Positions 3,268 to 33,125 of a stretch of 64,000 nt of DNA are shown here, piece after piece. A program made the translations under genes and the position numbers. This DNA is from a virus, in the IMG/VR virus record IMGVR_UViG_3300033182_000581, positions 94,492-158,491 of that record; one strand, written 5' to 3'. Under the pieces are notes generated by a model. It was not told the DNA's origin. It did not search any database and was given only the letters and a program-made list of their open reading frames with translations. The stretch's first letter is position 1. Each line of letters starts with the position of its first letter.

Positions 3268-3608
3268 GAGAATTGATTATGGGTATGGGCCTAATATTCG
3301 TAGGCCAGATGTTGATTTGGTATCAAACCAATGGACAGTTTGTATGGAAATGGTTTAAACACCATCCACTACTTCTTGCCATTGGATTTGGTACTATAAT
3401 CTCATATTTACTAATTTGGGGTACACGTTTTACTGTATCTTACTTTGATGGATTACTATGGCCAGGTAGATTTATAGCATTTGGAATGGGTATCATTTCA
3501 TTTACGTTTCTGACGTGGGGTTATATGGGTGAGGGTATCACTACAAAAACATTGGTGTCATTGGTATTGGCAACATCGTTGGTTTTTATTCAGATATTAT
3601 GGAAATAG
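3264..3608 (+). CDS. small multi-pass membrane protein (EamA/SMR-like size)
   Basis: About four hydrophobic segments in 114 aa. Confidence 0.65.
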   Translation: MRELIMGMGLIFVGQMLIWYQTNGQFVWKWFKHHPLLLAIGFGTIISYLLIWGTRFTVSYFDGLLWPGRFIAFGMGIISFTFLTWGYMGEGITTKTLVSLVLATSLVFIQILWK

Positions 3609-3835
3609 AAAAAATAAGAAATCTAAGAGAATCTACCAAAATGCAACAAATCCATATGATTAACCATATTTGGGATATTATATGGAAAAGTGGGGATACA
3701 AAAGGTATCCCACAATGGAGAGATAGAAATAGATTATATAAATTAGATACGAAATTAAAAAAAGAATCATATTTATTAACGTACAAAGACTTCCAATTTT
3801 TGGATAGTATGTACCAAAAGTATATAAGAATTTAA
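3599..3835 (+). CDS. hypothetical protein
   Basis: ORF in tight operon packing. Confidence 0.55.
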   Translation: MEIEKIRNLRESTKMQQIHMINHIWDIIWKSGDTKGIPQWRDRNRLYKLDTKLKKESYLLTYKDFQFLDSMYQKYIRI

Positions 3836-4066: not shown

Positions 4067-4675
4067 ATGAAGAAAGGTGATATCATGCCAAATGGATTTG
4101 TGCTGGGTAAGGGGAGAACTCCATTAAACCTTACTGAAGCTCAGATTCGTTATGCTATGAAGAACTCTAAATCAAATAGTGGTGCGGCTCGATTCTTAAA
4201 TGTATCCCTTACTACATATGAAAAGTATGCGAGAAGATACATTGATGAAGAGAGTGGAAAAGATTTGTGGGATTTACAAAAGAATAAAAGGGGTAAGGGT
4301 GTAAAAAAACCATACAATGTAACAAAAGGTAAATACGCTCTTAAAGATATCTTAGATGGTAAGTATCCTAAATATTCAGTACACCAACTGAAGAATCGAT
4401 TATTGAACAACGCAGATAAAGTAGATTTCAAATCATGTTGTCATAATTGTGGATATGAAGAGAAACGAATAACCGATGATAAGATTCCTTTGATATTAGA
4501 CCATATCGATGATGATTGGACTAATCACCTCAGAGAAAATCTTAGATTCTTATGTTACAATTGTTTCCACAATTTAAAAGGAAATATCAGAGGTGGACAA
4601 CCTCAATGGAGAGTAGAACAGGTTCAAAAAGCAAAAGAAACTATAAAACGTAAAAACAACAAAAAAGAGGAATAA
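4067..4675 (+). CDS. HNH endonuclease with N-terminal HTH-like region
   Basis: CHNC...LILDHIDDDWTNHLRENLRFLCYNC HNH/zinc motif; N-terminal SNSGAARFLNVSLTTY looks like an HTH. Confidence 0.75.
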   Translation: MKKGDIMPNGFVLGKGRTPLNLTEAQIRYAMKNSKSNSGAARFLNVSLTTYEKYARRYIDEESGKDLWDLQKNKRGKGVKKPYNVTKGKYALKDILDGKYPKYSVHQLKNRLLNNADKVDFKSCCHNCGYEEKRITDDKIPLILDHIDDDWTNHLRENLRFLCYNCFHNLKGNIRGGQPQWRVEQVQKAKETIKRKNNKKEE

Positions 4676-4678
4676 GTT

Positions 4679-6286
4679 ATGGGTAAAGAAATCTTTCACG
4701 GAAAAGAAAGTAGGGAAAAATTACTAAAGGGTGTAAACGAGTTAGCTAATGCAGTATGTGTAACTTTGGGCCCGCGTGGTAGGAATGTCATCATTGAAAA
4801 GGAAGGAACACCTCACATTACAAAAGATGGGGTTACTGTCGCAAAGTCTATTGAATTTACGGACTCCACTAAAAACTTGGGTGCACAAATCATCAAAGAA
4901 GCATCTCAACAAACCGCTGATAACGCCGGTGATGGTACAACCACATCAACCGTGTTGGCTCAACACATTTTCAACGAAGGTATGAGAGCAGTTGAGAGTG
5001 GTGCAAATCCTATTGAATTGTATAGGGGAATGCAGATTGGTGTTAAAGATATTGTAGATTCTTTGGTAAAGAATGTATCATTGAGTGTAAAAACCAATGA
5101 AGCAATTAAAAACATCGCAACTATCTCAGCAAATGGTGATGAGGAAATCGGTGGAATTATTGCAGAAGCAATTCATCAGGTTGGTAATGATGGTGTAGTT
5201 ACCGTTGAAGAAGGTAACAACAATGAAACCACTTTAGAAATTGTAGAAGGTTTAGAATTCGATAAAGGGTATCTATCTCACTTCTTTATGAACAATCAAT
5301 CGAAATTGGCGTGTATTCTAAATGAACCACAAATTCTATTGTATGATGGTTCGGTAAACAATATGGATGATATCATTGGTATCTTAGAGAAGGCATCTAT
5401 GAGTAATTCTCCGATTGTAATTATCGCCCACGATGTACAAGGTGATGCATTGGCATCTATGGTTGTAAACTCAGCAAGAGGTACATTACAATGTTTGGCA
5501 GTGAAAGCACCTGGCTTTGGTGGTGAACGTACTGAGATTATGAAGGATATGGCTGCGTTGACGGGTGCAACCCTAATCACATCAGAAATGGGATTAACAT
5601 TGGAAGATGTTACTGAAGAACATTTGGGGAGTTGTGATAAAGTAGTATCTGATAAAACTAAAACATCAATCATTGGTGGACATGGTGAGAACGAAGATAT
5701 TGAGAATCGTATTACTATTATCAAAGCAGAGAAAGAGAAATCCGAATCTGATTTTGAAAAGGATAAACTACAAACTCGTCTATCAAAACTATCAGGTGGT
5801 GTGGCAGTTATCAAAGTAGGAGCAGAATCTGAGGTTGAGTTGAAAGAAAAGAAAGATAGAGTAGATGATGCTATTCTATCAACCAAAGCAGCACTGGAAG
5901 AGGGTATTGTACCAGGTGGTGGTGTTGCACTAATTCATTCTCGTAATATTATCAAAGAAAGACGTGGTGGATTATCTGATGATAGGAATAAAGGTATCGA
6001 TATTATTGAATCAGCATGTGAGGCACCATTTAGAGCTATTGTTAAAAACGCAGGGTTATCATCAGATTCACTATTAGATAAGTTGAATAATTCACCAAAA
6101 CCAAATCCACAAATCGGATATAATGTAGTATCAGAAGAGTTTTGTGATTTGATTGAAGCTGGTGTGGTAGACCCTACAAAGGTAACGAGAACTGCAATTG
6201 AGAAAGCAGTATCAGTAGCAGGTACATTACTTACTACTGAGTGTATGGTGGTTAATGAACCATCGGATGATAATGAAAAATCTTAA
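4679..6286 (+). CDS. groEL: chaperonin GroEL (Cpn60)
   Basis: VTLGPRGRNV, TKDGVTVAK, GDGTTT, KAPGFG, EGIVPGGG, GVVDPTKV; no C-terminal GGM tail. Confidence 0.98.
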   Translation: MGKEIFHGKESREKLLKGVNELANAVCVTLGPRGRNVIIEKEGTPHITKDGVTVAKSIEFTDSTKNLGAQIIKEASQQTADNAGDGTTTSTVLAQHIFNEGMRAVESGANPIELYRGMQIGVKDIVDSLVKNVSLSVKTNEAIKNIATISANGDEEIGGIIAEAIHQVGNDGVVTVEEGNNNETTLEIVEGLEFDKGYLSHFFMNNQSKLACILNEPQILLYDGSVNNMDDIIGILEKASMSNSPIVIIAHDVQGDALASMVVNSARGTLQCLAVKAPGFGGERTEIMKDMAALTGATLITSEMGLTLEDVTEEHLGSCDKVVSDKTKTSIIGGHGENEDIENRITIIKAEKEKSESDFEKDKLQTRLSKLSGGVAVIKVGAESEVELKEKKDRVDDAILSTKAALEEGIVPGGGVALIHSRNIIKERRGGLSDDRNKGIDIIESACEAPFRAIVKNAGLSSDSLLDKLNNSPKPNPQIGYNVVSEEFCDLIEAGVVDPTKVTRTAIEKAVSVAGTLLTTECMVVNEPSDDNEKS

Positions 6287-9839: not shown

Positions 9840-10049
9840 ATGGAAGTAGATTTACACGGTGTAAGACATAGTGAAGTTGAAAAAGTATTAGAAGATAACT
9901 TCTTAGTAAGAGAGAATAGAGATGGGTGGAGAATCATAACAGGCCACTCACCTATGATGAAAGATATCGTAACTGATTTCTTAGAACGTAATGGATATCA
10001 ATGGTATCTTCCAAGTTGGAATATGGGAATGGTAATCGTTATTGATTGA
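9840..10049 (+). CDS. stand-alone Smr (small MutS-related) domain protein
   Basis: VDLHGVRHSEV...IITGHS matches the Smr DLHG / ITG-G pattern. Confidence 0.7.
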   Translation: MEVDLHGVRHSEVEKVLEDNFLVRENRDGWRIITGHSPMMKDIVTDFLERNGYQWYLPSWNMGMVIVID

Positions 10050-10050
10050 T

Positions 10051-10218
10051 ATGGTAACATATAAACATAAAGGAATAGAATACGAAATACTAGGTGAACG
10101 AAAGGAGATACTCTTATCTGATTTCAAATACTGCGAATCCATAGGTGATTGGAAAACCATACAAAATAGAATCACAAATGGTACGATGTACGGATGGTTA
10201 AAAGAATTAAATAAATGA
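10051..10218 (+). CDS. hypothetical protein (55 aa)
   Basis: Read by hand: MVTYKHKGIEYEILGER...; fills the gap between neighbouring genes. Confidence 0.5.
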   Translation: MVTYKHKGIEYEILGERKEILLSDFKYCESIGDWKTIQNRITNGTMYGWLKELNK

Positions 10219-10502
10219 TAGTATTTGAGGCAAGAACATTAGAAGAACTTATCGTTGAGGTAAGGGAGAGAGAAGTAGAGATAGGAGTAGAATCCGTAAT
10301 CTCAACTCTTATAGGATTACAAACTGGTGTTGAGGTGGTGAAATTAGATATAAAAACAACCGATGAATTAAAAGAAGAATTTGATTTTTCATTGGAAGTA
10401 ATCATAGAAGATTACGAGGAAACATTCAGAAAGAATAAGGATAAGTTAATCAAAGCAGAAGAGTACGAACTCCTATCAGAAATACAAACATATATCGGAT
10501 GA
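10215..10502 (+). CDS. hypothetical protein (C-terminal UVR-like motif)
   Basis: LIKAEEYELLSEI resembles a UvrB/C motif. Confidence 0.55.
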   Translation: MIVFEARTLEELIVEVREREVEIGVESVISTLIGLQTGVEVVKLDIKTTDELKEEFDFSLEVIIEDYEETFRKNKDKLIKAEEYELLSEIQTYIG

Positions 10503-10570
10503 TAAATCCAAAGTGAGGTAGAATAAAATAAGCTAAATGATATAGATAAATGTGATAATAATATTACATA

Positions 10571-10614
10571 TACCCAACTATTAAGTAATACTTACCCAAC
10601 TATTAAATAATACT
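10571..10614 (+). repeat. 22-bp tandem repeat x2
   Basis: TACCCAACTATTAA(G/A)TAATACT twice. Confidence 0.75.
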
Positions 10615-10635
10615 TATAGTAAAGAGGAGTCTAAA

Positions 10636-11115
10636 ATGAAACCATTATTAACACTATTACTACTGTTACTATGGACAATAGGTAATGGACAAACAAAACC
10701 GCGACCACGAACATCAGATAATTGGGGTGTAGAACTATCAGCAAATATCTCTAATTATAACTCACTATCCATTAGCATAGAAAAAGAGTTCCATTATAAC
10801 AATTGGACATTCGGGCCAAGAGTAGAGTTGGTAAATCCATTTGATTCTATATCATATAAAGGTGGTGATACTACATACCAAATGAACGCTCAGATAAGAA
10901 TAAGATTAGCACAAGTAGAGTATAGGGTAAACCCATCTATAAAGATAGGAATATCTCCATTTTGGATGTTAGGACCCCTCCCACAAAGAGGATACTATAA
11001 GACACCCACATCTATATATGCAGATTTCAGATTGAAAAATGACCTGTTCTTTGTAACAACATTCACCACATCTCAGAGAGAAATGGTACAACTATCCGTT
11101 CGGAAGAGATTGTAA
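10636..11115 (+). CDS. secreted/outer-membrane beta-rich protein
   Basis: Signal peptide MKPLLTLLLLLLWTIGNG; alternating beta-strand-like segments. Confidence 0.55.
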   Translation: MKPLLTLLLLLLWTIGNGQTKPRPRTSDNWGVELSANISNYNSLSISIEKEFHYNNWTFGPRVELVNPFDSISYKGGDTTYQMNAQIRIRLAQVEYRVNPSIKIGISPFWMLGPLPQRGYYKTPTSIYADFRLKNDLFFVTTFTTSQREMVQLSVRKRL

Positions 11116-11295
11116 AAAAAAGTGAGGTAGAATAAAATAACCTCAATAATAAAGAAACTACCTTATATACTAATAATAACCCATACTATACATATTACTC
11201 TATAAAGAGAATAATAACCCATACCGTTCCCACCGTAGGTTACCGACCGAAGGTGTGTAGAGAAAAAATTCCAGAGGAATTTCTATAAAAGCCAT

Positions 11296-11323
11296 AACCT
11301 CCTAATCCATAGGGGGTTTTTTT
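11296..11323 (+). terminator. intrinsic terminator
   Basis: AACCTCCT-AATCCAT-AGGGGGTT plus T-run. Confidence 0.6.
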
Positions 11324-11657
11324 ATACCCAAACTCCCCCATAAAGCCCTACTAAAATACCCACTTTCTACCACATTTCACCACTTTCCATAAAACTCTAG
11401 CACTCTCTAACCATTCCCTATCAGTATTACCTAATATTGGGAATGGGAGGCCTCCCCGCCAAGGCCATAAATCCCCTCCCCGCCAAAACCAATGATATCC
11501 CATTTATACCAAACTCCCCTTAGGGGAAGGGTAGGGTAAGAAAATGAGGTGTAAATGAAATAAGCTCATGCACTTTTTTGTGAAGAAAACAAATTTTTAT
11601 GCCCAGAAGTTATTAACTGACAGAGTGTCATAGTGGCTTTATGGGGCACTGAAAAAG

Positions 11658-12043
11658 TTATCAACACCCATTTTATGACATTATGTCACCCGAAGCGGGA
11701 TAAAAATGGGGCATAAAAAGTTATCCACAAAGTTATTAACATACTGACATATTGTCTGTTGATAAGTTTCTTTAGCTTTATTTGGAATTCTCCCATTTAT
11801 TTCGTATCTTTACAGGGGGGTTATATATAAAAAAACTGCCCATTTATGGGTAACACTCCAAAACCCTTACCAGCAGTCGGGTTTCGAGGGTATCTCGATA
11901 GCTATAAAAGTTTATAAATCTCCAATATTGGGAAGATAAAGTTATCCACAATGCTGCCCTGTTCCTATAATTGGAATAAATAGTTACATTTGTAACACGC
12001 TGTGTTTACTATTTATGGGGGGTTGTGGATATCTTGTGGAAAA
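11658..12043. promoter_or_regulatory. DnaA-box cluster
   Basis: Perfect TTATCCACA at 11721 and 11942; TTTTCCACA (minus) 12035; one-mismatch boxes at 11658, 11757 (minus) and 12024 (minus); weaker box at 11733. Confidence 0.65.
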
Positions 12044-12044
12044 C

Positions 12045-12100
12045 TTAACACAAATTTAACATTAGGGATTTGGATATATGGGGATAATGTGTTATCTTTA
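12045..12100 (+). promoter_or_regulatory. class I promoter cassette, copy 4
   Basis: TTAACA 12045, TTTG 12069, TATCTTTA 12093. Confidence 0.75.
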
Positions 12101-12122
12101 CTATGTAAAAGAGAGATAAGTT

Positions 12123-12695
12123 ATGAAAAACAAGAAAATCAAAATCGAGTTGGGTGGTCAAATGTATGAGTTGAACGCCAAGTGTTTACGAGAAAATACC
12201 TACGGAGCTGGTAAGAACGTAGGAAAATACCTTTACATCAGTCACGCTGATGCTGGGTCTTTGGTGAAACAATTTGTTAAGAAGAATTATCCTAATGTGG
12301 TATGTAAGGTGAGTTCATCCTCTTTTAGTGGTGGTAACTCTCTTGATGTTTATGTCCACGATAAATTAGGTAACCCCATCGCTCAAGACATTTACGACAA
12401 TATTAACCGATTCGCCCACCAATGGGAGTATGGTAAGTTCAACGGAATGTTCGACATCTACGAGAACTATGAGTCCGCCGGAGCGGTGTCTGACAACGGA
12501 ACGACCATCCAAGCCGGTGTTAAGTATGTGAATGTTTACAACCGAGCTAAATTCGGAACGATGGAAGCTATCCTCTACGAAGTAATGGAAGAGGGTCGTG
12601 AGTTCGGTGAGGTCACCAAGTTCTACACCGATTCAACCACCAAAAACCAAGTGGTTCGAGCTCAAAAAGTTCTTTCAGAGTTAGGTAAGATTTAA
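12123..12695 (+). CDS. LPD29-like protein, paralog 2
   Basis: KKNYPNVVCKVSSSSFSGGNSLDVY; YGKFNGMFDIYE and GVKYVNVYNR are shared with 1729..2328. Confidence 0.55.
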   Translation: MKNKKIKIELGGQMYELNAKCLRENTYGAGKNVGKYLYISHADAGSLVKQFVKKNYPNVVCKVSSSSFSGGNSLDVYVHDKLGNPIAQDIYDNINRFAHQWEYGKFNGMFDIYENYESAGAVSDNGTTIQAGVKYVNVYNRAKFGTMEAILYEVMEEGREFGEVTKFYTDSTTKNQVVRAQKVLSELGKI

Positions 12696-12747
12696 CACAA
12701 AGTTAACATTAAAAGTTTGGAACTTTGAGAATTATTCACTACATTTA
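12692..12747 (+). promoter_or_regulatory. class I promoter cassette, copy 5
   Basis: TTAACA 12692, TTTG 12716, TACATTTA 12740. Confidence 0.75.
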
Positions 12748-12769
12748 CTATGTAAAAGAGAGATAAGTT

Positions 12770-12985
12770 ATGAAACAACTAGAAGAATTAGTAAATGATG
12801 GATATGAAGATTTAACTATATCAAAACAAAACTTTATTACATTAATAGAAAAATATGGACATAATATACCGATACTTATCAATAATAAAAAGGTATGGAT
12901 TCACTTTACGGAATCTGATAAAATATTAGTAGAATGTGATATAAGTGATGGAAGTGGTATAGAATTAAATATTGAAGAAATATGA
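12770..12985 (+). CDS. hypothetical protein
   Basis: ORF behind cassette 5. Confidence 0.6.
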   Translation: MKQLEELVNDGYEDLTISKQNFITLIEKYGHNIPILINNKKVWIHFTESDKILVECDISDGSGIELNIEEI

Positions 12986-13245
12986 AACATAAAAGACTAA
13001 CTCAAGAACAATTAAAAGAGTATGAAAATAAAAAACTCACTTCAAAAGATATAATAGAAATGGAAGAAAAGGGTTTTAGAATACCGCTAATGGTAAAATT
13101 ATATAATTTAGAAAAAGAAGATAAAATAAGTTTTACCGAAGATACACTAACAGATATGTTAAAATTTGCTATTGAAAATGAGTATTATGAAAAAGCAGCT
13201 ATATTAAAATCGTATTTAGATAATCACATCACACCCAACAATTAA
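12982..13245 (+). CDS. hypothetical protein with C-terminal UVR motif
   Basis: AIENEYYEKAAILKS. Confidence 0.6.
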   Translation: MKHKRLTQEQLKEYENKKLTSKDIIEMEEKGFRIPLMVKLYNLEKEDKISFTEDTLTDMLKFAIENEYYEKAAILKSYLDNHITPNN

Positions 13246-13323
13246 AGCACCTTTATCAAATTAATTGATATTTATTAGTATAGATGAGATAATCGAAAAA
13301 ATAATAATCTAAATTCAAGATAT

Positions 13324-13518
13324 ATGAAGAATCAGTATGGTAAGAAGTATCAGTATGGATACCAACCCAAAATTAATTACTGGAAGTACAAGTGGAATCA
13401 AGCCTTAGAGATGGGTGATGTAGAAGGAGCACTCCGAGCAGAGTGGAAGGTAGAATACTTTACCCAACGCCAGTTAGATATCTACGGGCACCATATGGTG
13501 GTAGGGAATGTAATATAA
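13324..13518 (+). CDS. hypothetical protein
   Basis: ORF after ATATTTAT at 13268. Confidence 0.55.
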   Translation: MKNQYGKKYQYGYQPKINYWKYKWNQALEMGDVEGALRAEWKVEYFTQRQLDIYGHHMVVGNVI

Positions 13519-13719
13519 GAGATGGGCCACAACCACCCTTCGTAAGCCATTATAGGCGATGAAAGATACTCGTGCAGGGGGGTGGGGGTATTTTCTCGTA
13601 ATCCTCTGAGAATCAATGACTTAGACGTGGGCTTAGTTGGTTTTTATGCAGAGGTCGCTTTTTCTCTCTAGGGAAAACCTATCTGAAGTGGTATGTAGTA
13701 CATATGAGGTAAATAATAA

Positions 13720-13775
13720 TTAACATAAAGTTAACATTGGAGATTTGGTAGTTTGGGTTATTATTATTATATTAG
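13720..13775 (+). promoter_or_regulatory. class I promoter cassette, copy 6
   Basis: TTAACA 13720, TTTG 13744, TATATTAG 13768. Confidence 0.75.
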
Positions 13776-13794
13776 TAGTGTAATAATGAGAGAT

Positions 13795-14076
13795 ATGATT
13801 TACAATAAAGAAAGTTTTAAGAGTTCGGTTGTTGGACTTCCAAAAGAAGAGTTAGTGTTACTCCACTCATCTATCAGAGTGGCAATGGCCAAAACTCCAA
13901 AAGAGAAACGTCGTGTTATGAACCAATGTGAAAGACTAAGGAAGGTTGTGTTTGGAACTGATGTGATTGAACGATTAGAAGGGTTGGATAGAAAGGTACT
14001 ACTATCTATGTTGAATTCAACCAACGGAATCTTAATGAAGAAATCATATAGTGAAACAGGTAGAATGAATTGGTAA
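13795..14076 (+). CDS. hypothetical protein
   Basis: ATG after GAGAGAT; the start given in the track lies inside the promoter. Confidence 0.6.
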   Translation: MIYNKESFKSSVVGLPKEELVLLHSSIRVAMAKTPKEKRRVMNQCERLRKVVFGTDVIERLEGLDRKVLLSMLNSTNGILMKKSYSETGRMNW

Positions 14077-26094: not shown

Positions 26095-26118
26095 GGTGTT
26101 GATAACTTGTTGATAACT

Positions 26119-26174
26119 TTAACAATTATTTAACATAGAACATTTGGATATATCAGAAATATTCACTACTTTAG
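26119..26174 (+). promoter_or_regulatory. class I promoter cassette, copy 10
   Basis: TTAACA 26119, TTTG 26143, TACTTTAG 26167; preceded by two TGTTGATAA boxes. Confidence 0.75.
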
Positions 26175-32745: not shown

Positions 32746-33125
32746 TTATGACAAGTACTGAATATTGGGATGAGAGTGAATTCAACTTCTTTAATCAATT
32801 GGATGATGTAGATAAACTACTATACATCTATGATTTAATGATTGGTGAATTCGTATATGAATACAATGGTGAAGATGTATCCCTTCCCATCTTTGAATTT
32901 GAATTTGAAGAAGAAGAAAAAATCAGACAAGATGTTTTAGTATCATTTACAGAGGATGGTGATATTAAGTTCGAAGGTGGTGATTTGGATGTATTAGAAA
33001 ACGCTGCAAGATTTATGGTTACAAATGGATTATTACTTACAAATCGTAAAGTTTCATTTATACATGAAACTGTGATTCTTACTTATACTTTATTAGGTGA
33101 AGGGTTACCAATCTCAATGAACTGA
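32742..33125 (+). CDS. acidic hypothetical protein
   Basis: 127-aa ORF. Confidence 0.6.
   Translation: MIMTSTEYWDESEFNFFNQLDDVDKLLYIYDLMIGEFVYEYNGEDVSLPIFEFEFEEEEKIRQDVLVSFTEDGDIKFEGGDLDVLENAARFMVTNGLLLTNRKVSFIHETVILTYTLLGEGLPISMN

Follow-up and report, generated by a model that had tools for sequence, protein, structure and literature searches.

A DnaA-box cluster in the largest non-coding gap of a T4-like phage: a possible DnaA-gated promoter hub and candidate origin

The window described here is a 64,000-nucleotide (nt) stretch of viral DNA, bases 94492-158491 of the 169,380-bp IMG/VR record IMGVR_UViG_3300033182_000581 (CheckV completeness 93%). From position 11116 to an ATG at 12123 it contains the largest stretch of the genome that is free of open reading frames (ORFs). 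Within this gap, 886 nt lack any plus-strand ORF of 40 amino acids (aa) or more; the runner-up stretch in the genome measures 460 nt. The gap carries a cluster of sites of the DnaA-box type. Long ORFs all lie on the plus strand in the whole record, and the replication and recombination set is of the T4 type, comprising a family-B polymerase (PolB), a gp41-like DnaB_C helicase, a clamp loader and a UvsX-like recombinase; a ribonucleotide reductase is also encoded. We propose, with a probability of roughly 0.5, that this T4-like phage uses the gap as its main non-coding control region, in which DnaA would gate a hub of promoters and possibly an origin of replication.

The box cluster, its promoters and its conservation

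Seven sites within one mismatch of TTATCCACA, two of them perfect, lie within 430 nt of the gap, compared with 40 others in the remaining 63 kb of the window. Shuffled versions of the gap (n=1000) contain 0.34 such sites on average, and none of the 1000 reaches seven. The whole record holds seven perfect boxes in total and clustering is seen at the gap only. A longer word, AGTTATYMAC, occurs eight times against an expectation of 1.0, with five of the occurrences in the gap. The initial annotation had described a DnaA-box cluster in a 0.9-kb non-coding stretch; the stretch proves to be the largest ORF-free gap of the 169-kb genome, and enrichment, uniqueness in the genome and conservation in relatives bear the cluster out. 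The near-matches that it listed at 11658, 11733, 11757 and 12024, in both orientations, are present, the site at 11733 being a two-mismatch variant (TTATTAACA). The boxes and the promoter elements associated with them are as follows.

11607 to 11769, both strands: box array I, consisting of AAGTTATTAAC at 11607, TTATCAACA at 11658 (plus), TTATCCACA at 11721 (plus) abutting TTATTAACA at 11733 (plus), and TTATCAACA at 11757 (minus)
11721, plus strand: perfect TTATCCACA, part of array I
11658 (plus), 11757 (minus), 12024 (minus), 12035 (minus, TTTTCCACA) and 12079 (minus): one-mismatch boxes
11782 to 11814, plus strand: internal promoter with TTTGG, a 19-nt spacer and TATCTTTAC; -33 box, spacer and -7 box match those of 16 promoter cassettes
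11815 to 11836, plus strand: a run of six G and then 15 nt of pure A/T (TTATATATAAAAAAA); the predicted start site coincides with this element or lies directly ahead of it
11942 to 11950, plus strand: perfect DnaA box (AAAGTTATCCACAA), a copy specific to the window's lineage; in the relatives L187-190 different boxes take its place beyond the A/T tract
12024 to 12043, minus strand: reverse box pair, 11 nt apart (ATATCCACA, TTTTCCACA), ending 1 nt before a TTAACA repeat
12045 to 12122, plus strand: cassette TTAACA-N5-TTAACAT-N6-TTTGG-N19-TATCTTTAC, driving the 190-aa gene that starts at 12123
26097 to 26116, minus strand: second locus, a reverse pair of TTATCAACA boxes, 11 nt apart, that stops 2 nt short of the cassette at 26119 (726-aa gene)

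The promoters are of the Bacteroidota type, with a -33 TTTG, a 19-nt spacer and a -7 TAnnTTwr. Genome-wide there are 16 cassettes of the form TTAACA-N5-TTAACAT-N6-TTTGG-N19-TAnnTTwr, all on the plus strand and none on the minus strand, concentrated at 95-128 kb of the genome (window 1223-33761). The 3' parts of the cassettes are shared, and metagenome contigs consequently cross-map between genes.

Upstream of the internal promoter, at a distance of 20-170 nt, is array I; the promoter was identified from sequence alone and is invariant in an alignment of three lineages (alignment A2). The block of six G and A/T, with its A/T part of 15 nt, is the best conserved of that alignment across the three lineages. 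Reverse boxes precede the TTAACA repeat at a distance of 1-2 nt at five promoters, namely 12045 and 26119 in the window, 6808 in L003, and 5058 and 5374 in L187 (5354 in L189). The arrangement at 26097-26119 repeats the design of box pair and cassette found in the gap, 14 kb away. Judged by this spacing, the boxes are wired into promoters, a feature that goes beyond the initial annotation.

Relatives of the gap were recovered via homologues of the upstream 159-aa gene, and shuffle tests (n=1000) were run on five loci. In L187-190, where the upstream gene is 76% identical, the gap measures 1.0-1.7 kb, its elements are in the same order as in the window, and 6-8 boxes occur, 3-4 of them perfect, against 0.3-0.55 expected; none of the 1000 shuffles reaches the observed count. 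The homologous reverse pair in these relatives includes one perfect box. L330 (upstream gene 63% identical) has five boxes and two TGACA-N3-TGTC palindromes. Counterparts of array I are seen in L187-190, L330 and L329. Conservation of the boxes, a check proposed earlier, thus holds for L187-190 and L330, with fewer or variant boxes in L003/L004 and L329. At the place of the window's internal promoter/tandem boxes, L003/L004 have a full cassette with three TTAACA units. Logan contigs of about 92% identity cover 11496-12118, and their divergent ends bear more perfect boxes in different flanks. Since boxes are gained and lost by place while the array and the 9-mer core persist, the comparison indicates selection on binding sites and not on a fixed sequence.

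Further elements of the gap and its neighbours

The other elements of the gap lie upstream of array I or between the A/T tract and the reverse pair.

11266 to 11325, plus strand: two terminator hairpins that end the upstream operon, AAATTCC-AGA-GGAATTT followed by a 9-pair stem with a run of seven T
11327 to 11520, plus strand: G-poor stretch with three CCAC units
11572 to 11601, no strand assigned: conserved tract rich in A+T (T6-G ... GAAAACAAAWTTT), adjoining the first box on its left, with invariant columns in alignment A2 and 80% A+T
11983 to 11996, no strand assigned: GTTACATTTGTAAC palindrome, retained in 1-2 copies in L003 and L187-190

A terminator-like site with a T run is predicted at 11296-11318, and both hairpins are retained in L003 and L187. 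The repeated words named in the initial annotation were all located as it stated, as were its box coordinates: AATAATAACCCATAC at 11172 and 11210, CCAAACTCCCC at 11328 and 11509, and ATGGGGCA at 11641 and 11707.

On the plus strand, 11330-11520 contains 8% G and 37% C, and the GC skew runs from -0.4 to -0.7 before turning positive after about 11500. The change from C-rich to G-rich near 11520 that had been noted by eye is therefore real, but it is local. CCAC recurs at 11360, 11370 and 11380 with an exact 10-nt period (TTyyACCAC; window 11358-11389). CTACCAC units are common to the window, L003/L004, L187-190, L329 and L330 and are the best-kept part of the G-poor stretch across these five lineages; in the relatives they lie at about 3410-3440 (L003), 4360-4395 (L187), 3760-3785 (L329) and 3805-3830 (L330). 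The phased units could be weak DnaA-type sites or iterons of some protein. Scanning IMG/VR for the G-poor phrase recovered nothing beyond the two known relatives and four unrelated contigs, which is about chance level.

Palindromes of the form TGACA-N3-TGTC(A) at 11618, 11676 and 11745 interleave with the boxes of array I. The 169-kb genome holds four copies where about 0.5 would be expected: besides the three in the gap there is one at 33123, upstream of hsp20; interleaving with boxes is also seen in L003, L187 and L330. This palindrome is a candidate operator of a dimeric regulator, and the GTTACATTTGTAAC palindrome is a candidate operator of an additional dimeric factor.

Searches for RNA genes and structures were negative: Rfam (evalue mode) gave no credible family on 10500-12700 or on the L187 gap, ARAGORN predicted no tRNA for this gap or for those of relatives, and folds of 11817-12044 (plus) and 11327-11580 (both strands) gave z-scores of -1.8, -1.1 and -1.1, which lend no support to a structured RNA. 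A leftward promoter at about 11590 (AAAATTTG, minus strand) was dropped for its imperfect -7 match, and a minus-strand hairpin at 11529-11514 was dropped because it is not conserved in L187.

The relatives also contain material of their own. In L187 (ENA contig k141_160689), a non-coding segment of about 250 nt at 5100-5350, absent from the window, follows a box-plus-cassette promoter and ends in a tRNA-like GGTTCGACTCCC arm, with no match by ARAGORN or Rfam. In L329 (4860-5000) and L330 (5170-5330), runs of five to eight C are split by short A/T words (CCCCCTATATACCCCC and similar), and a CCCCC-TGGGGG hairpin with a T run closes the series; nothing comparable occurs in the window.

The upstream neighbour (10636-11115) encodes a 159-aa protein with a signal peptide, conserved beta-rich segments and a basic C-terminus, features that point to secretion or an outer-membrane location and are surprising in an early region. 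Homologues of the gene number more than 85 in marine metagenomes; cultured phages have none. It is the gap's only stable neighbour, and the one IMG/VR relative of the gene (L060) lacks the gap. The downstream neighbour encodes a 190-aa protein of unknown family. It was rejected as an anchor for finding the gap, as L017-L019 have the gene (66-81% identical) without the gap. No box cluster was found in L005-L016 and L020-L053, which were examined for it. Rep, Par and helix-turn-helix families were sought in the genes flanking the gap and none matched; with no rep or par gene beside it, the plasmid-like maintenance that had been suggested for the gap finds no support.

Candidate ligand, promoter control and the origin question

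Bacteroidota-type promoters and occurrence in marine metagenomes, where near-identical DNA (about 92-99%) is present in lagoon, seawater and aquaculture samples, together lead us to infer that the host is probably a marine bacterium of the Bacteroidota. A search of genome contigs with the phage GroEL gave no relatives and hence no pointer to a host, and BLASTN of 10000-14000 against cultured phages gave a single 48-nt match. Among cultured phages the closest PolB is that of Microcystis phage Mel-JY01 (49.5% identity), followed by those of T4-like cyanophages (32%).

The phage itself shows no match to the DnaA DNA-binding domain (Bac_DnaA_C, E up to 1). Chromosomal clusters of Bacteroidota contain perfect boxes in 11-nt tandem in the context AGTTATCCACA, like the phage array, and place variants with A at position 6 beside perfect boxes, including the exact word AAGTTATCAACA. 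The tandem box word is present in bacterial genomes from many phyla, in more than 120 stretches. Given a conserved cluster seen nowhere else in the genome, the lack of a DnaA domain in the phage itself and words like those of the Bacteroidota, host DnaA is the most economical ligand, and it is probably the protein that binds the boxes; a factor other than DnaA is a somewhat unlikely ligand.

One chromosomal cluster, in a Bacteroidia genome (L333, G045:C128:15230-15530), has about 11 perfect TTATCCACA, three TTATTCACA and four TTATAAACA within 300 nt. It adjoins a nadA-like gene and would be a useful reference for box variants in the Bacteroidota.

BLASTN of the gap against 401 Bacteroidia genomes yields matches of 21-48 nt only, and the absence of any long match rules out the gap as a captured host origin. 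Five of 27 weak matches fall on one 70-nt query segment, which includes the A+T-rich tract and the first box (11582-11617); in one genome (L337, G356:C70:112-147) a 36-nt match of 89% to these positions lies between two divergent genes.

Strong (TTATCCACA) and weaker (TTATCAACA, TTATTAACA) boxes in both orientations flank the conserved internal promoter. If host DnaA is the ligand, DnaA oligomers on the phased sites would set the activity of this promoter and of the one at 12045. Promoter control by the boxes is predicted at about even odds. The internal transcript would begin in the G run and cross the A/T tract, a candidate downstream unwinding or R-loop element. It could correspond to an origin transcript of the T4 oriF/oriG type, serving as an R-loop primer for PolB, the gp41-like helicase, the clamp loader and UvsX. 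In that case the host initiator would be needed both for early transcription and for the first round of origin-dependent replication. In an extended version of this scheme, DnaA would be diluted as new phage genomes add boxes, early promoters and origin firing could thereby be turned off, and initiation would become recombination-dependent. That the region acts as an origin is a tentative prediction, which we place short of an even chance. The extended scheme, in which a T4-like lineage has placed an origin transcript and a subset of early promoters under host DnaA, DnaA occupancy starts a T4-type replisome and times early genes, and the array doubles as a copy-number counter, is rather unlikely.

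Several observations weigh against a DnaA-gated hub and origin. In 81 Bacteroidia genomes the 12-mer AAGTTATCCACA shows no enrichment (32 occurrences against 61 for the reversed control). Roughly every second phage box carries A at position 6 or TA at positions 5-6, and TTATTCACA, the good variant with TC, never occurs; the CA and TA boxes are weak by TTWTNCACA, the consensus of E. coli. The best-conserved single box, at 11607, is not a perfect DnaA box in any lineage. Among the relatives, L003/L004 (IMG/VR) keep the gap with only 1-2 boxes, L329 (upstream gene 62% identical) has only variant boxes (TTATCAACA, TTATTAACA), and Mel-JY01, the nearest cultured phage by PolB, has no cluster. Between 11100 and 12130 there is no run of four or more relaxed DnaA-trios ([TA]A[GA]) on either strand. 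No A+T-rich element stands out, the richest 30-mers reaching 80-83% in a genome of 66% A+T, in which 15-nt A/T runs are not rare; conserved stretches of this kind are a 30-nt tract at 11572 and the 15-nt pure A/T tract at 11822. The cumulative GC skew climbs monotonically across all 169 kb, its single dip being the local G-poor stretch. An inflection, which the initial annotation had named as a check on an origin, is thus found neither at the gap nor genome-wide; this test is low-powered because all genes lie on one strand and replication of the T4 type is driven by recombination.

The recruitment of host DnaA for initiation, as put forward earlier, therefore stands only in part: DnaA is the likeliest ligand, but trios, an outstanding AT-rich tract and a skew shift are missing. 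A chromosome-style origin is likewise supported only in part, by the boxes; the unwinding half appears to be missing.

The best-surviving alternative, which we consider unlikely, is a hub for transcription only, with no replication start, in which GTTATYMACA would be the operator of a phage-encoded or other host regulator. This regulator would act with factors bound at the TTAACA repeats and at TGACA-N3-TGTCA in timing the early promoters, and the likeness to DnaA boxes would be a resemblance. Such a hub would account for a conserved word that exceeds the DnaA 9-mer (A-rich, then G/C, then TTAT..ACA), for the roughly equal frequencies of CC, CA and TA at positions 5-6 without any TC, for a most conserved copy that reads TTATYAAC, and for a relative (L329) with variants only. 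It also fits boxes that keep a fixed offset, in phase with promoter repeats, at five promoters, and a gap with two other palindromic operators and no unwinding module. It sits poorly with the perfect TTATCCACA, of which each gap in two lineages has 2-4 copies and which reappears in metagenome variants with different flanks, and with the identical variants and phasing of Bacteroidota chromosomal clusters. The phage has no DnaA-like domain, and no candidate regulator gene travels with the gap, whose sole stable neighbour encodes the secreted beta-rich protein.

Titration is very unlikely as the principal role. Multiplying phage genomes would act as a sink for host DnaA, shutting down host oriC and freeing nucleotides and replisome parts. 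Clusters of boxes outside origins that titrate DnaA are an established class in bacteria (datA, the B. subtilis clusters), and the phage has both strong and weak boxes without an unwinding module, at sites that multiply with its copy number. A sink, however, needs no promoter register, no conserved internal promoter and no interleaved second operator, and would be modest with 2-4 strong sites per genome; L003/L004 have one perfect box.

A classical bidirectional origin of the oriC type, which DnaA itself would open through the basal unwinding system, was the principal interpretation of the initial annotation and appears equally improbable. Boxes in both orientations do cluster in the largest non-coding gap, and an unrelated large viral genome has such a cluster at its skew minimum, but the trio run, the outstanding A+T tract and the skew inflection are all lacking here. 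No T4-type phage is known to require DnaA, and a review of T4 replication makes no mention of DnaA (PMC3016281).

Chance, or functionless decay of captured host DNA, has a negligible likelihood: A+T-rich non-coding DNA does yield TTAT-type words and short weak matches to Bacteroidia exist, but none of 1000 shuffles reaches the observed count at five loci, lineages with only 62-76% identity in the flanking gene share the architecture, and the 401 Bacteroidia genomes hold no long match.

Comparison with known systems and wider meaning

T4 oriF (uvsY) and oriG (gene 34) each combine a promoter with an A+T element downstream of it, at which the transcript gives rise to an R-loop primer (PMC3016281). 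The window phage shares the T4-type replisome and has a promoter directly before an A+T element in non-coding DNA; from this juxtaposition it follows that origin activity could be set by transcription. T4 differs in using the phage activator MotA and in having no DnaA boxes, whereas the promoter in the window has Bacteroidota -33 and -7 elements and is surrounded by boxes. The A/T tract in the window is also only 15 nt long, and the R-loop is putative, deduced from the layout of the sequence.

The basal unwinding system of bacterial oriC reportedly consists of tandem DnaA boxes, a GC spacer, DnaA-trios and an AT-rich region. The window resembles it in its strong and weak TTATCCACA-type boxes in both orientations, their tandem period of 11-12 nt and their Bacteroidota word context, and differs in having no DnaA-trios, clear unwinding element, skew shift, or dnaA or dnaN nearby.

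DnaA-regulated promoters and clusters also occur outside origins, as at datA and the mioC, dnaA and nrdAB promoters of E. coli and the DnaA-box clusters of B. subtilis. Like these, the boxes in the window lie beside promoters without an unwinding module and may have a regulatory role, a titrating one or both. Unlike them, the array is on a phage of lytic type and stands in a fixed helical register with a phage repeat, TTAACA-N5-TTAACA, at several promoters.

The origins of P1 (oriR), F and pSC101 combine DnaA boxes with a Rep protein and iterons. They offer the parallel of a mobile element that borrows host DnaA through consensus boxes, and the CCAC repeats of the window have a 10-nt period. 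In contrast to these plasmids, the gap has no flanking rep or partition genes and the genome encodes a complete T4-type replisome.

A second virus provides a further parallel. In IMGVR_UViG_3300045988_167780 (G003; 159 kb, 96% complete, no dnaA), 10 of 12 perfect boxes lie within 410 nt (C1:58690-59103, equal to L118 3830-4250), at the minimum of the cumulative skew and at a switch from minus to plus strand; L073 is a near copy. As in the window phage, the stretch is gene-free, with several perfect boxes, no dnaA in the genome and promoters alongside. It has no sequence similarity to the window, and the skew minimum and strand switch are absent from the window phage, so that the cluster of G003 is a much stronger origin candidate than that of the window. 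PHROGs searches with the genes beside it gave nothing informative.

The exact tandem pair TTATCCACAGCTTATCCACA is found in at least 120 IMG/VR contigs with a G+C content of 32-65%, often with 3-10 perfect boxes within 800 nt. None of the 80 tandem-pair contigs that were compared (L066-L145) is similar to the window phage, and some short contigs of the set may be misfiled cellular DNA. Five large genomes with the pair were tested (95-358 kb, three of them 96-100% complete by CheckV), and none has a dnaA gene.

In textbooks, T4-type phages exemplify replication that is independent of the host initiator. A DnaA-box cluster or DnaA-assisted origin is a known kind of element; what is new here is its presence in a T4-type phage and its register with phage promoter repeats. 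Evidence for a coupling between phages and host DnaA was limited to sequence predictions in the literature searched, and for DnaA boxes in lytic phages the literature found offers Ori-Finder predictions only (PMC11512268). Together with the tandem-box contigs in IMG/VR, at least 120 in number and some of them near-complete at 160-360 kb without dnaA, the cluster points to a widespread coupling of phage and host. If this is true, phages with a complete replisome would also read or exploit the replication-initiation state of their host.

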